From Escherichia phage PNJ-9: a stretch of DNA of 64,000 nt. The DNA lies in sequence record PQ100635.1; one strand, given 5' to 3'. The position numbers and the translations under genes are program-made. Under the pieces are notes generated by a model, which saw nothing but the letters and a program-made list of their open reading frames with translations, ran no database searches and had not been told where the DNA came from. Positions 26,463 through 41,412 of this stretch are shown piece after piece (the first letter of the stretch is position 1; each line of letters begins with the position of its first letter).

Positions 26463-27148
<686 letters not shown>

Positions 27149-27160
27149 TTTAACAAAACA

Positions 27161-27190
27161 GTTTACATAAGGATGATGGTGTGTTACTAT
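27161..27190 (+). promoter_or_regulatory. T4-type early promoter (GTTTAC -35, TACTAT -10) with embedded inverted repeat
   Basis: GTTTAC at 27161-27166, 18-nt spacer, TACTAT at 27185-27190; inverted repeat AGGATGAT/ATCATCCT flanks the -10. Confidence 0.55.
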
Positions 27191-27224
27191 CATCCTATCA
27201 AATAAACGACCTCAAGGAAATAAA

Positions 27225-27512
27225 ATGAAAACCTATAAAGAATTTATATCACCTGTTGCTAACGTTTCTACTCTGACCGAAGCAACCCTTACTTCCGAAG
27301 TTATTAAAGCAAATAAAGGACGTGAGGGTAAACCAATGATTAGTCTGGTTGACGGCGAAGAAGTAAAAGGTACTGTTTACTTAGGGGATGGATGGTCTGC
27401 TAAGAAAGATGGCGCTACTATTGTTATCTCTCCGGCTGAAGAGACCGCACTGTTTAAAGCTAAGCATATTTCTGTAGCTCAGCTTAAAATTATTGCAAAA
27501 ACTCTTCTGTAA
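27225..27512 (+). CDS. ipI: internal protein I-like capsid-targeted protein
   Basis: 95-aa ORF with N-terminal capsid targeting sequence MKTYKEFIS; sits next to 57B as ipI does in T4. Confidence 0.65.
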   Translation: MKTYKEFISPVANVSTLTEATLTSEVIKANKGREGKPMISLVDGEEVKGTVYLGDGWSAKKDGATIVISPAEETALFKAKHISVAQLKIIAKTLL

Positions 27513-27515
27513 GTA

Positions 27516-27545
27516 GTTTACATGCTGATAGGACTATGTTATAGT
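27516..27545 (+). promoter_or_regulatory. T4-type early promoter with 10-bp inverted repeat
   Basis: GTTTAC 27516-27521, TATAGT 27540-27545; inverted repeat GATAGGACTA/TAGTCCTATC around the -10. Confidence 0.55.
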
Positions 27546-27580
27546 AGTCCTATCAGATCAACAACCAAACGGAAAAACAA

Positions 27581-27844
27581 ATGAAAACCTATAAAGAATT
27601 TATCGCTGAATCTCAATCTTCTACTCTGTCAGAGAACTACGAATCATTCTCTTACAACAACGACCATGCAATGTTCTACGACCGAAACATCGGTACTTAT
27701 GTCCATGTATGGGGTGTTAAAGATGGTAACGTAGTTGTTAAGAAAAACTCTAAAGAAGGCAATGGTCGTGGCCAGGTAAAAATTACCAGCAAGAAAGCTA
27801 TCCAAGCTTACGTCGATTATGTTAAACGCGAAGCTGGTATTTAA
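27581..27844 (+). CDS. internal-protein-like capsid-targeted protein
   Basis: 87-aa ORF beginning MKTYKEFIAE (capsid targeting sequence with the L/I-x-E protease motif). Confidence 0.55.
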   Translation: MKTYKEFIAESQSSTLSENYESFSYNNDHAMFYDRNIGTYVHVWGVKDGNVVVKKNSKEGNGRGQVKITSKKAIQAYVDYVKREAGI

Positions 27845-29342: not shown

Positions 29343-29417
29343 GGCCCTGTAGCTCAATGGGAGAGCTGTCAGCTCATAACTGATAGGTAGCTGGATCGAA
29401 ACCAGCCAGGGTCACCA
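29343..29417 (+). tRNA. tRNA with CAT anticodon (Met, or lysidine-modified Ile)
   Basis: Hand-folded cloverleaf: acceptor GGCCCTG/CAGGGTC, D-arm GCTC-AATGGGA-GAGC, anticodon loop CTCATAA, T-arm GCTGG-ATCGAAA-CCAGC, 3' ACCA encoded. Confidence 0.75.
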
Positions 29418-29420
29418 ATC

Positions 29421-29497
<77 letters not shown>

Positions 29498-37901: not shown

Positions 37902-38349
37902 GAAAAATAAAGTGAAAGAACTATCAGCAGGTATTATTTTCCTTACCGAAGATAAAGAATTATTCATGGGGCGTGTAACTGGTTCTCGTCCTAAAGGTGC
38001 ATTAGCTCATCGGTGGGATATTCCTAAAGGTCGTGTCGAGCCCGGTGAATCTCCTATCGAAGCCGCTATTCGTGAATGCGAAGAAGAAACTGGGTTTACA
38101 CAATATGACCCTGCCTTCCTGAAAGACCTAGGTGAACATCATTACTCAGACAATAAGAATATTCATCTGTTCCTATATACCATCCCTGTAGAGCACGAGC
38201 AATTCAGAAACAGTGTTTGTAATTCCTATCATACGTTCCCAGACGGACGACAGATTCCTGAATTTGATGCATTCGCTTTAATTAAACCTTCTCAGTGGGA
38301 ATATGTAATGGGCAAATCATTATATAAGGTGCTCACTACCATCCTATAA
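37891..38349 (+). CDS. nudE: Nudix hydrolase NudE
   Basis: 152-aa ORF with Nudix box GRVEPGESPIEAAIRECEEETG; immediately upstream of lysozyme e as in T4. Confidence 0.85.
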   Translation: MMSKKNKVKELSAGIIFLTEDKELFMGRVTGSRPKGALAHRWDIPKGRVEPGESPIEAAIRECEEETGFTQYDPAFLKDLGEHHYSDNKNIHLFLYTIPVEHEQFRNSVCNSYHTFPDGRQIPEFDAFALIKPSQWEYVMGKSLYKVLTTIL

Positions 38350-38351
38350 GT

Positions 38352-38383
38352 AATAAATACCTCCTATAAACGTGGGAGGTATT
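38352..38383 (+). promoter_or_regulatory. late-promoter-like element plus SD-sequestering hairpin upstream of e
   Basis: AATAAATA at 38352-38359 (7/8 of TATAAATA) and 9-bp stem AATACCTCC / GGAGGTATT (38356-38364 with 38375-38383) whose downstream arm is the e SD. Confidence 0.55.
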
Positions 38384-38872
38384 ATGAATATATTTGAAAT
38401 GCTTCGTAATGACGAAGGTCTTAGACTGACTTTATACAAAGACACTGAAGGCTTTTGGACAATTGGCATAGGTCATTTAGTAACAAAGAACCCGTCTTTA
38501 GCTGTAGCTAAAGCTGAACTTGACAGAATGATCGGGCGTAAATGCAACGGTACAATTACCCTTGATGAGGCTGAAAAGTTATTTAATGAAGACGTTGATA
38601 AAGCTGTTCGCGGAATCTTGGGTAATGCTAAACTTAAACCGGTATATGATTCTTTAGATGCGGTTCGTCGATGTGCATTGGTCAATATGGTCTTCCAAAT
38701 GGGTGTAGCAGGCGTCGCTGGTTTTACTAATTCTCTTCGTATGCTTCAACAGAAACGTTGGGATGAAGCGGCAGTAAATCTAGCACAATCTAAATGGTAT
38801 CGTCAGACACCTAATCGCGCGAAACGCGTAATCTCAACATTTAAAACAGGAACTTGGAAAGCGTATATATGA
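38384..38872 (+). CDS. e: endolysin (T4 lysozyme)
   Basis: [32 protein letters not shown]...; near-identical to T4 lysozyme as recalled; 162 aa from ATG 38384. Confidence 0.95.
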
Positions 38873-39150
38873 AAACATATAGCGAATTTTTATCAGAATC
38901 TATTCTTAACGAAGCTACTGACACATTTGCAACTAAGCTAGGTGCAGCTTTGGTTGAAGCTGAAAGTCTATTAGCACGTATTTCTGAACTTGCTAGTAAG
39001 ATAGATACTCGCAAATTTGAACGTACCAGCGATATCGTTAAGCTTGAAGCCTTGTTGCGTATGTGCGATAAACCGGAAGAAATCGCTAAGAACGGCTCGC
39101 TGATGAAACAACGTCTTGAAAAATATATTTCAGGCGCTTCAGAAAAATAG
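38869..39150 (+). CDS. internal-protein-like capsid-targeted protein
   Basis: 93 aa beginning [10 protein letters not shown] (capsid targeting sequence); ATG overlaps the e stop (ATGA). Confidence 0.6.
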
Positions 39151-39151
39151 T

Positions 39152-39205
39152 GTTTACTTCCTCCAAGGACTTTGATACTATACATTCATCAACTACTTGG
39201 AGGAA
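39152..39205 (+). promoter_or_regulatory. T4-type early promoter with 10-bp inverted repeat sequestering the denV SD
   Basis: GTTTAC 39152-39157, TACTAT 39176-39181; arms TTCCTCCAAG (39158-39167) and CTTGGAGGAA (39196-39205); SD GGAGGA lies in the downstream arm. Confidence 0.55.
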
Positions 39206-39208
39206 ATT

Positions 39209-39622
39209 ATGACCCGTATCAATTTAACACTTGTTTCTGAACTGACCGACCAACATCTTATGGCTGAGTATCGTGAATTACCACGCGTATTTGGTGCAGT
39301 CCGTAAACATGTTCAAAACGGTAAACGTGTAAAGGATTTTAAAATCTCTCCAACATTTATCTTAGGCACAGGTCATGTAACATTCTTTTACGACAAACTC
39401 GAATTTTTACGTTTACGTCAAATCGAGCTAATCGCCGAATGCTTGAAACGTGGTTTCAAAATCAAGGACACGACTGTCCAAGATATTTCCGACATCCCTG
39501 CCGAATTTCGTAATAATTATGTCCCGTCCGAAGCGTCCATTGCGATAAGTCAAGCACGCTTAGATGAAAAAATTGCTCAGCGCCCGACTTGGTACAAATA
39601 CTATGGTAAATCAATTTACTAA
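39209..39622 (+). CDS. denV: endonuclease V (pyrimidine-dimer DNA glycosylase)
   Basis: [34 protein letters not shown]...; near-identical to T4 DenV as recalled; 137 aa from ATG 39209. Confidence 0.95.
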
Positions 39623-39628
39623 GGAAAA

Positions 39629-39889
39629 ATGAAAATGTATCAAGAATTTATCGCTGAAGCAGATGCCAAAGGTCATAAATTTAAAGTTAAAGCTTTCATT
39701 GGTGATGCGGAAGACTTTGGCTCATTAAAACGTAATGGGTATTTTTTCTTAGGTGGCGATGGTAAAGAAATCAACACCTATGCAAAACGTAGTGAAATTG
39801 CTTATGTTGTAGCAAGCCCTAAAGTAGATGTTGACGATATTGGATACGATTTTAACAACTTCGGAATTATTTCTGGCGGTAAAGCTTAA
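39629..39889 (+). CDS. internal-protein-like capsid-targeted protein
   Basis: 86 aa beginning MKMYQEFIAE. Confidence 0.6.
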   Translation: MKMYQEFIAEADAKGHKFKVKAFIGDAEDFGSLKRNGYFFLGGDGKEINTYAKRSEIAYVVASPKVDVDDIGYDFNNFGIISGGKA

Positions 39890-39892
39890 ACG

Positions 39893-39922
39893 GTTTACGC
39901 TTAAGTATTAATATGGTATAAT
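39893..39922 (+). promoter_or_regulatory. T4-type early promoter
   Basis: GTTTAC 39893-39898, 18-nt spacer, TATAAT 39917-39922. Confidence 0.55.
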
Positions 39923-39952
39923 TACTCTATCAAAACAAACAAGGAAACAAAA

Positions 39953-40255
39953 ATGAAAACTTATCAAGAATTTATCACCGAAGCGCGAGTAAGTGCAGGT
40001 AAATTAGAAGCCGCTATAAATAAAAAGGCCCATTCATTTCATGATTTGTCCGATAAAGACCGTAAGAAACTTGTAAGCCTTTATATTGACAAAGAGCGTA
40101 TTCTCGCTCTTCCTGGCGCTAATGAAGGTAAACAGGCCAAGCCTTTGAATGCTGTCGAAAAGAAAATTGATAACTTTGCTTCTAAATTCGGTATGTCTAT
40201 GGATGACCTTCAGCAAGCGGCTATCGAAGCAGCTAAAGTAATTAAAGGTAAATAA
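39953..40255 (+). CDS. internal protein (IPII/IPIII-like)
   Basis: 100 aa beginning MKTYQEFITEARVSAGKLEAA; resembles T4 internal proteins as recalled. Confidence 0.6.
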   Translation: MKTYQEFITEARVSAGKLEAAINKKAHSFHDLSDKDRKKLVSLYIDKERILALPGANEGKQAKPLNAVEKKIDNFASKFGMSMDDLQQAAIEAAKVIKGK

Positions 40256-40368
40256 CAGTTTACTTTCTCCTAGAATTGTGATAGTATATTCATAATTACT
40301 TGGAGTGGTAAATACAGAAATGGACAATTCATAGGTCATTCCATAGCCCCAACCTTAAGAGAAACTAA

Positions 40369-40698
40369 ATGAAAACATATCAAGAGTTTATCACTGAAGT
40401 TACATTATCTGCGGAACAGAAAGCTGCTATCGAAGAAGCTAAAAATCCCAAAGTAACATATAAAGTAAATAGTAAAGGCGTTTTTGATGGCTTGGTTCAA
40501 GACCCTGAATTGAAAAAAGCTCTTTCTAAAACTAATGCGTACTTTGCTCCTAAATTTAACACAGCCGGCGTACTTATTGGATTGGATGTATTCAACTCTA
40601 AAGGTGTTCTATCTAATGCCTTTGGTTATGCCGCTAACAAAATTACCAAAGCCGCATGGGAATCCAATACCAAACAAGCTCAAAAGCCTAGAGTATAA
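40369..40698 (+). CDS. internal-protein-like capsid-targeted protein
   Basis: 109 aa beginning MKTYQEFITEVTLSAEQ. Confidence 0.6.
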   Translation: MKTYQEFITEVTLSAEQKAAIEEAKNPKVTYKVNSKGVFDGLVQDPELKKALSKTNAYFAPKFNTAGVLIGLDVFNSKGVLSNAFGYAANKITKAAWESNTKQAQKPRV

Positions 40699-40872
40699 TT
40701 CTTGCCTAATAAAGGGAAACGCAACCTCTCCTTATGAACGTCGAGTCCTCTGAGTGATGTACCTTTTCCAACCTGTAATAAGGTCGAGCCCAAGTGCGGT
40801 AATGGGTTTACATAGCGAGTCGAAGGACCTAACATGTGCCACGGAATGGCCCCAAACCTTAAGAGAAATAAT

Positions 40873-41412
40873 ATGAGAACATTTTTAACTGGACCTTATC
40901 TATCCCTGATGAATGCTTTTACACACCATTCTGATGCTAGAGTAGAAGAAATTTGTAAGAACGGTTATGTCCCACCATTTGAAGACGTACTCAAGCAGTA
41001 CTGTACACTTCGTTTAGACGGTGGCAGACAATCAGGTAAATCGACCGCAGTAACTAATTTTGCTGCTAATTGGCTGTATGACGGTGGAACAGTTATTGTT
41101 CTTTCTAATACTTCAGCTTATGCTAAAATTTCTGCTGGCAACATTGAAAAAGAATTTTCTCGTTATTCTAGCGACGATATTCGATTCCGTTTATTTACTG
41201 ATTCTGTCCGTAGTTTTATTGGCAATGAAGGTTCTAAATTCCGTGGATTAACGCTTTCTCGTATTCTGTATATAATTGACGAGCCTATTAAAGCTCCTGA
41301 TATGGATAAGATTTACAACATACATATTAAAACAGTCCAACACTGTTGCAAAAGCAAATATTGCATCGGCGGTATTGCTCGTCCTCAATTTTTTGTGATT
41401 GGAATGCAATGA
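40873..41412 (+). CDS. P-loop NTPase of unknown function
   Basis: 179 aa from ATG 40873; Walker A GGRQSGKST and Walker B-like ILYIIDEP. Confidence 0.55.
   Translation: MRTFLTGPYLSLMNAFTHHSDARVEEICKNGYVPPFEDVLKQYCTLRLDGGRQSGKSTAVTNFAANWLYDGGTVIVLSNTSAYAKISAGNIEKEFSRYSSDDIRFRLFTDSVRSFIGNEGSKFRGLTLSRILYIIDEPIKAPDMDKIYNIHIKTVQHCCKSKYCIGGIARPQFFVIGMQ

Follow-up and report, generated by a model that had tools for sequence, protein, structure and literature searches.

The stretch of DNA analysed here (hereafter the window, 64 kb of Escherichia phage PNJ-9, record PQ100635.1) carries six small genes whose products all begin with a leader of the type known as the capsid targeting sequence (CTS) of the T4 internal proteins (IPs). 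Our reading, to which we give a probability of roughly 0.85, is that these genes make up the two classical IP loci of a T-even phage and encode CTS-targeted, gp21-processed, injected proteins carried in recombining cassettes. The first 10 residues of each small protein (18-19 in the IPI type) would serve as the CTS, the leader would bind the protein to the scaffolding core during prohead assembly, and the gp21 prohead protease would cut after an [LI]-x-E motif, leaving a mature protein of 8-11 kDa free inside the head, from where it would be ejected into the cell along with the DNA. The most likely job of the mature protein would be to block a host nuclease attacking the incoming modified DNA, because the protein arrives with the DNA and before phage gene expression. 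Homologous recombination in short repeats, that is in the CTS and in promoter elements, would add, delete and swap cassettes within and between genera.

Allowing up to three mismatches, the DNA pattern ATGAAAACNTATMAAGAATTTAT matched exactly the six CTS starts and nothing else, where 0.01 matches were expected by chance and none of 100 shuffled sequences reached six. The genes are orthologues of T4 ipI (27225) and ipII (39953) and four further cassettes, which we call A (38869), B (39629), D (40369) and E (27581); as the original prediction had it, four lie around denV and two near 57B. All six open reading frames (ORFs) occupy the places of the IP loci, either 3' of 57B or between e and vs.8 together with denV, and a six-frame protein scan of the 64 kb with M[KR]x[YF]x[ED][FYL][ILVM] found no further CTS ORF. 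Every leader is close to MKTYQEFIAE, with deviations only in 39629 and 27225. The consensus first put forward, MKTY(K/Q/S)EF(I/L)(A/S/T)E, accordingly describes four of the ORFs and fails for these two, of which the former has Met3 and the latter no Glu10. At the level of the motif, [LI]-x-E is present at residues 8-10 in five ORFs (IAE10, LSE10, IAE10, ITE10 and ITE10). The leader of 27225, MKTYKEFISPVANVSTLTE, starts MKTYKEFISP, with Ser-Pro at 9-10, and has as its sole [LI]-x-E the LTE at 17-19; in this degenerate form it resembles the leader of T4 IPI (MKTFKEFTST...ITE19), and a cut after Glu19 is predicted to release a 76-residue IPI*. Prohead-protease motifs, another element of that prediction, are hence found on all six leaders, and the predicted mature proteins measure 8.0-10.7 kDa. 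The cognate assembly machinery, comprising the portal gp20, the core proteins gp67 and gp68, the gp21 protease and gp22-24, is annotated directly past the start of the window in the record of Escherichia phage PNJ-6 (OQ076693; Mosigvirus, RB69-like, Tevenvirinae). The block 38300-41000 is 100% identical to PNJ-6 and 96-99% identical to many further Mosigvirus genomes.

Two of the bodies are those of known T4 proteins. ORF 27225 matches Pfam IPI_T4 (PF11634) over residues 20-95 with an E-value of 1.3e-50, covering the full 76-position profile, and also PHROG 4363; its mature part is identical to T4 IPI* at 72/76 positions (95%). ORF 39953 belongs to PHROG 7857 (E 4.5e-55) and its mature part is identical to T4 IPII at 84/90 positions (93%). 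Each of Ip1, Ip2 and Ip3 inhibits a GmrSD type IV enzyme different from those of the other two (Silas et al., PMC12373910), and the IPI and IPII orthologues almost certainly keep the T4 anti-GmrSD functions. No IPIII orthologue was found in the window; phage phi25-307 has one, inserted directly before ipII. The remaining four bodies have no significant similarity to one another or to T4 IPI, IPII or IPIII. The idea that all the mature domains might simply be orthologues of these three proteins fails, because only two of the six are close T4 orthologues, and the divergence of the bodies stands as predicted.

Cassette A corresponds to PHROG 3499, 'internal head protein' (E 1.2e-46), and to RB69ORF127c, and shows 47-51% identity to the ip5 genes of T2 and PP01. 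Cassette B falls in PHROG 2667, again 'internal head protein' (E 5e-20), occurs in 216 phage records and shows 63-67% identity in Salmonella S16-type phages. In RefSeq relatives these genes carry annotations as internal head or internal virion proteins. Families of 'unknown function' take in the other two, PHROG 3966 for D (which is RB69ORF123c, a 'hypothetical protein' in all 90 records) and PHROG 13302 for E (35 phage records, every one 'hypothetical protein'); a literature search found no paper naming RB69ORF123c. Pfam and NCBIfam scans of the four non-T4 bodies gave nothing above threshold, sequence searches against PDB chains reached at best E 0.065, and searches for homologous proteins returned very shallow families (2, 11 and 5 clusters). 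The comparison of mature domains by sequence and structure, suggested at the outset as a check, therefore delivered PHROG assignments and two T4 orthologues, and for B and D only generic folds and no function; the AF2 model of B (pLDDT 75.6) is a compact, generic alpha/beta sandwich. A distant relationship of B to IPI, for which the lead was a local alignment of 14/40 positions, was rejected after follow-up that included fold comparison. An exhaustive HMMER search with D recovered one real distant cluster. The same method gave weak summed matches of D to the MBG_2 repeats of giant surface proteins, which we treated as composition or repeat noise because Pfam detects no MBG_2 in D itself.

Because near-identical relatives differ in cassette content, the idea of recombination can be put to the test. 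Between genomes that are 96-99% identical, the denV locus varies from A, denV, B, IPII, D in PNJ-6 to A, denV, B, X, IPIII, IPII, D in phi25-307, A, denV, B, D in 308Ecol101PP, A, denV, B, X, D in GADS24 and A, denV, IPII, D in SF. The ipI locus holds IPI and E in PNJ-6, IPI only in GADS24, IPI with a 102-residue cassette in LF82-7, only that 102-residue cassette in phi25-307, and two other cassettes in F27. Several breakpoints can be placed. In 308Ecol101PP, which is without ipII, the ipII promoter and ribosome-binding site (RBS) are joined to the D body, with the changeover no more than ~16 nt into the CTS; the alignments on either side share 44 nt (RBS and CTS), the copy from upstream of ipII running to -3 and the D copy from codon 6. 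The two-cassette insertion of phi25-307 and the replacement in GADS24 have their junctions at window positions 39941-39975 and 40357. Left junctions at the ipI locus map within the CTS, to 27247 or 27610, and those on the right fall in a 47-nt promoter/stem-loop repeat; in GADS24, which has no cassette E, the crossover is inside the copy of this repeat at 27514-27560. Crossovers between relatives do fall in the CTS-coding repeat, which bears out the proposal that the repeated 5' ends provide homology for exchange. A cassette is in effect a 'body plus downstream promoter element', which runs from its own CTS on the left to whichever CTS or promoter element follows on the right. One event involves no repeat: SF lost B by simple deletion of 39630-39877.

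A mosaic across genera is seen at cassette A. The cassette and its spacer (38869-39208) are 97.9% and 100% identical at the nucleotide level to Tequatrovirus ime09, where the order is e, A, denV, Ip4, vs.8, whereas identity in the flanking genes is 62% for nudE, 82% for e and 73% for denV; this disparity indicates that cassette A moved recently between Mosigvirus and Tequatrovirus. Counted over partial loci only, relatives carry seven CTS genes (phi25-307), five (GADS24 and 308Ecol101PP) and, in Dhakavirus AnYang, five for the denV locus by itself, where they lie to either side of denV. The 35-nt CTS DNA occurs at 2656 places in 1024 phage records, at most 6 of them in any one of the 60 records listed, and the loci of ten genomes yielded 11 unrelated body families. 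The set had been described as expanded, which is true relative to T4 and untrue among relatives, with their 5 to 7 CTS genes in partial loci; six such genes are ordinary for the group and unusual only by comparison with T4. The rearrangement around denV is real, in that the order differs from T4 and a relic of a T4-type ipII-denV junction remains behind ipII.

Promoters of the T4 early type (GTTTAC, 17 nt, TAnnAT, usually with an extended -10 TG) stand before ipI, E, the gene after E, denV and ipII, and again after ipII, and most of them enclose or overlap a stem-loop (Table 1). The two that bracket cassette E are 94% identical at a spacing of 331 nt, and junctions between relatives fall inside them, as in cassettes of the PeSL (promoter/stem-loop) type. 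The start of cassette A overlaps the stop of the lysozyme gene e (ATGA), and cassette B, which lacks its own promoter, begins 7 nt past the denV stop, so both ride on the transcript of the upstream gene. The direct repeat on either side of D looks like the footprint of an insertion of D before vs.8. Behind ipII, the ATG of the ipII-denV relic opens a 4-codon mini-ORF, MDNS*, in place of denV (window 40256-40345), and in some database relatives (P0002, 125 residues) this mini-ORF is fused in frame to cassette D as an N-terminal extension before the CTS. Upstream of denV, a 15-nt inverted repeat at 39152-39212 (TTCCTCCAAGGACTT / AACTACTTGGAGGAA) encloses the denV -10 box, with the denV Shine-Dalgarno sequence (SD) in its 3' arm. 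Read-through transcripts would mask the denV RBS and transcripts begun at the denV promoter would not. Masking of the RBS in this way is the known logic of T4 gene e.

Cassette E has a body that occurs both with and without a CTS. Its leader, MKTYKEFIAE/SQSSTLSE/ (slashes mark predicted cuts), is IPI-like with two [LI]-x-E sites (10 and LSE18), and it resembles the adjoining IPI leader in the second cleavage site and in a 15-nt DNA repeat; the PHROG 13302 profile spans only residues 16-87. Two other T4-like lineages, Dhakavirus (AnYang and IME08) and the contig L017, have homologues of the body without a CTS, 63% and 49% identical, as free-standing early genes downstream of the topoisomerase gene 52. 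The AnYang copy (NC_055782, 130683-130904) stands between gene 52 and motA, and the L017 copy at ~2470-2665. A scan of viral contigs with the E body alone gave no match, and one with a two-sequence alignment gave two loci. These CTS-less homologues may be a new observation. Since the body is seen in both states, the same effector would be packaged in some phages and synthesised after infection in others. Most simply, the sequences can be read as the capture of an early cytoplasmic protein by an IPI-type leader, and the reverse direction, in which the homologues derived from E by loss of the CTS, is possible. Taken further, the IP loci might be an open recruitment platform, on which small early effectors become packaged and injected through recombination onto a CTS leader, cassette E being a natural example; we offer this tentatively, and would put its chances at somewhat below even. 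If true, the four uncharacterised cassettes need not be GmrSD inhibitors and may target other first-response defences. The DNA of RB69-type phages is, according to the literature, arabinosylated and not glucosylated.

Several points weigh against reading the six genes as injected anti-defence proteins. For the four non-T4 cassettes we infer that the products are packaged, cleaved, injected and active against defences, virion presence and injection being deduced from the signal, and a literature search found no paper on Mosigvirus virion proteomics. The late promoter TATAAATA occurs directly before none of the cassettes, its sole copy in the locus lying inside ipII, and the supply of IPs at the time of head assembly is an assumption taken from T4 biology. 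When ip4-ip10 were set against a panel of GmrSD variants there was no reproducible inhibition (Silas et al., PMC12373910), and for the non-T4 cassettes 'type IV restriction inhibitor' is for this reason an extrapolation. The generic folds predicted for B and D offer no functional lead. Cassette B moreover begins MKMYQEFIAE, with Thr3 replaced by Met, its start is ambiguous, the GenBank annotators having chosen the second ATG at 39635, and it is often frameshifted or truncated in related genomes and metagenome assemblies (P0006, P0008, P0010, P0011; H108, H116, H129). We hold with moderate confidence that the four non-T4 bodies are specific inhibitors of other defence variants.

The alternative that survives best, unlikely as we judge it, is that the extra CTS proteins are mainly structural or physicochemical, serving as basic counter-ions, DNA packing partners or helpers of core and head shape, as has been proposed for T4 IPIII. 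Among the six mature proteins, four are indeed basic (IPI-like, E, IPII-like and D, with a pI of 9.0-9.7), but A and B are near neutral (6.3 and 6.8). Each IP is present in ~360 copies in a T4 head, and head assembly is aberrant in IPIII-minus and triple-IP mutants, yet the T4 IPs are non-essential (PMC9026906). The lack of reproducible GmrSD inhibition by Ip4-10 would suit a structural role, whereas all T4 IPs, the basic IPII and IPIII included, are specific GmrSD inhibitors (PMC12373910). A generic role would also leave unexplained the fast turnover in presence and absence and the transfer across genera of unrelated bodies.

A shade less probable is that some of the six are decaying or hitch-hiking ORFs whose 5' end is kept by recombinational copying, with 39629 in particular perhaps unpackaged. 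In addition to its MKMY leader and the annotation of its second ATG, the spacing from SD to first ATG is 3 nt, several relatives are truncated or frameshifted, and phage SF has a near-exact deletion of the cassette. Given the altered Met3, the ambiguous start and the common frameshifted or truncated relatives, cassette B may be decaying or under relaxed selection in part of the population. On the other side, Mullaney and Black reportedly found in 1996 that the CTS tolerates substitutions such as those at positions 2, 4, 7 and 8. Decay would sit poorly with the six intact ORFs of PNJ-6, and in the case of 39629 with protein identity of 63-84% out to Salmonella phages, whose leader is an intact MKTY, and with a compact AF2 fold; the determinants of the CTS have been probed by suppressor substitutions at positions 2, 4, 7 and 8 (PMC9026906). 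That the shared 5' end is kept only for translation initiation or expression, the proteins acting only after de novo synthesis, is very improbable: early-type promoters before most cassettes with no late promoter directly upstream of any, the existence of the 27581 body elsewhere as a CTS-less early gene, and the activity of IPIII in the cytoplasm without its CTS (Srikant et al., PMC9391042) would agree with it, but what is conserved is the amino-acid sequence MKTYxEF[IL]xE, protease site included and synonymous codons varying (Thr3 as ACC, ACA and ACT), adjoining non-IP early genes are without the CTS sequence, and the first 10 residues of IPIII suffice for packaging, CTS fusions bringing foreign proteins into the T4 head (PMC9026906).

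The gene order of the window is that of the T4 map in reversed direction. Minus-strand tail and baseplate genes extend to ~23.6 kb and are followed by 1, 57A, 57B, the ipI locus, two tRNAs, nudE, e, denV and the vs genes. The tRNA genes at 29343-29497 are only two (Met-CAT and Arg-TCT), where T4 has an eight-tRNA cluster with segB and two small stable RNAs. The gene at the downstream limit of the denV locus is labelled 'endoribonuclease' in the PNJ-6 GenBank record. This is probably an annotation error and the gene a vs.8 homologue, since position and size fit vs.8 and regB lies several genes further on in T4. The leader of this vs.8 homologue is 176 nt long (40699-40882 region) and is partly duplicated upstream of D in SF and NHEP36; in these two phages the left copy of the repeat that brackets D is ~110 nt long and matches window positions 40768-40882 with 77-79% identity. 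What PNJ-6 retains of this duplication is the 32-nt direct repeat.

Table 1. Features of the two internal-protein loci, in window coordinates (a slash marks the predicted cut)
Feature	Position	Strand	Remarks
57B	26693-27148		just upstream of the 27225/27581 pair
early promoter/stem-loop before ipI	27159-27205	+	GTTTACA-17 nt-TACTAT, upstream TG; inverted repeat GGATGAT/ATCATCC; one of three 47-nt direct-repeat copies
ipI orthologue	27225-27512	+	95 aa
left direct repeat of cassette E, early promoter/stem-loop	27514-27560	+	TTTACA-17-TATAGT with TG; perfect 12-bp stem
CTS cassette E	27581-27844	+	87 aa
right direct repeat of cassette E, early promoter/stem-loop	27845-27891	+	promoter of next gene (27907)
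CTS cassette A	38869-39150	+	93 aa
denV promoter/hairpin	39152-39205	+	GTTTACT-17 nt-TACTAT; inverted repeat and direct repeat; aligned with T4 and AnYang ipII-denV intergenic regions
denV (endonuclease V)	39209-39622	+	GenBank annotation of PNJ-6 and relatives; not an IP, inside the cassette array
CTS cassette B	39629-39889	+	86 aa
early-type promoter before ipII	39893-39922	+	TTTACG-17 nt-TATAAT with TG; best promoter-like site in region, 10/12 positions
ipII orthologue	39953-40255	+	100 aa; leader MKTYQEFITE/
relic of T4-type ipII-denV intergenic region	40256-40320	+	promoter, SD, ATG; aligned to T4, to AnYang and to the sequence upstream of denV in the window; direct repeats
32-nt direct repeat bracketing D	left 40347-40378, right 40851-40882 (start of vs.8 homologue)	+	CCCCAACCTTAAGAGAAACTAAATGAAAACAT; 84% identity
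CTS cassette D	40369-40698	+	109 aa; leader MKTYQEFITE/
vs.8 homologue	40874-41412	+	downstream limit of denV locus; position and size as vs.8 in ime09 and T4

The two variable loci have been described since 1994, the concept, the leader and the shuffling are likewise in the literature, and the PNJ-6 case is a correct re-derivation of them. The genes share with those of the T4 internal proteins their small size, leader and [LI]-x-E motif and their placement at two loci, one beside 57B and the other beside e and denV; 27225 and 39953 are direct orthologues. In T-even phages with polymorphic IP loci the number, order and identity of CTS ORFs likewise vary at two loci with conserved promoter/stem-loop flanks proposed for shuffling; there is no difference in kind from PNJ-6, and in the records examined D and E appear only as 'hypothetical protein'. 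The abstract of Repoila and co-workers from 1994 is said to describe 10 new IP ORFs with an 11-residue leader and conserved flanking blocks proposed to mediate shuffling. Such loci (Ip4-Ip10 and later) are credited to Repoila et al. 1994 and, with a count of more than 30 IP variants, to Comeau et al. 2007 in PMC2839356, PMC3012670 and PMC12373910. The CTS and its processing have been described (PMC9026906), the IPs are known as diverse defence proteins with only the CTS in common (PMC3012670), and a homologue of ipI was noted in RB69 (PMC13326640). Arbiol et al. 2010 (PMC2839356) reported two variable IP loci, more than 30 IP variants and PeSL-like flanks, and suggested that promoter/stem-loop elements may drive IP shuffling and confine it to the IP loci.

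Comparison with other systems helps to define what is particular here. The PeSL cassettes of RB49 and phi1 are also small non-essential ORFs bracketed by repeated promoter and stem-loop recombination linkers. The elements in PNJ-6 differ in being of the T4-early-promoter type (GTTTAC, 17 nt, TAnnAT) with AT-rich stems, as PMC2839356 notes for IP loci, and in that a coding repeat, the CTS, also acts as the left-hand linker. The anti-restriction Dar proteins of phage P1 (DarA, Hdf and others) and the propeptide-bearing ejection proteins of the giant phage SPN3US are, according to PMC12810830, PMC5694885 and PMC7411985, head-loaded effectors whose delivery together with the DNA pre-empts restriction, some of them having cleavable propeptides cut by the prohead protease. 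In contrast to the genes described here, these are unrelated proteins with unrelated targeting signals, and they form no cassette array with a common 10-residue leader. The four non-T4 sequences are present in public genomes and two are already annotated as internal head proteins. What is added are base-level breakpoints in the CTS or in the 47-nt repeats, a transfer across genera and one body found with and without a CTS, which illustrate the system and establish no new principle.

Of all phage molecules, internal proteins are the first that host defences encounter. As all three T4 IPs are specific type IV inhibitors, the four non-T4 cassettes are sensible anti-defence candidates, and they are candidates also for explaining the host range of therapeutic T4-like phages.

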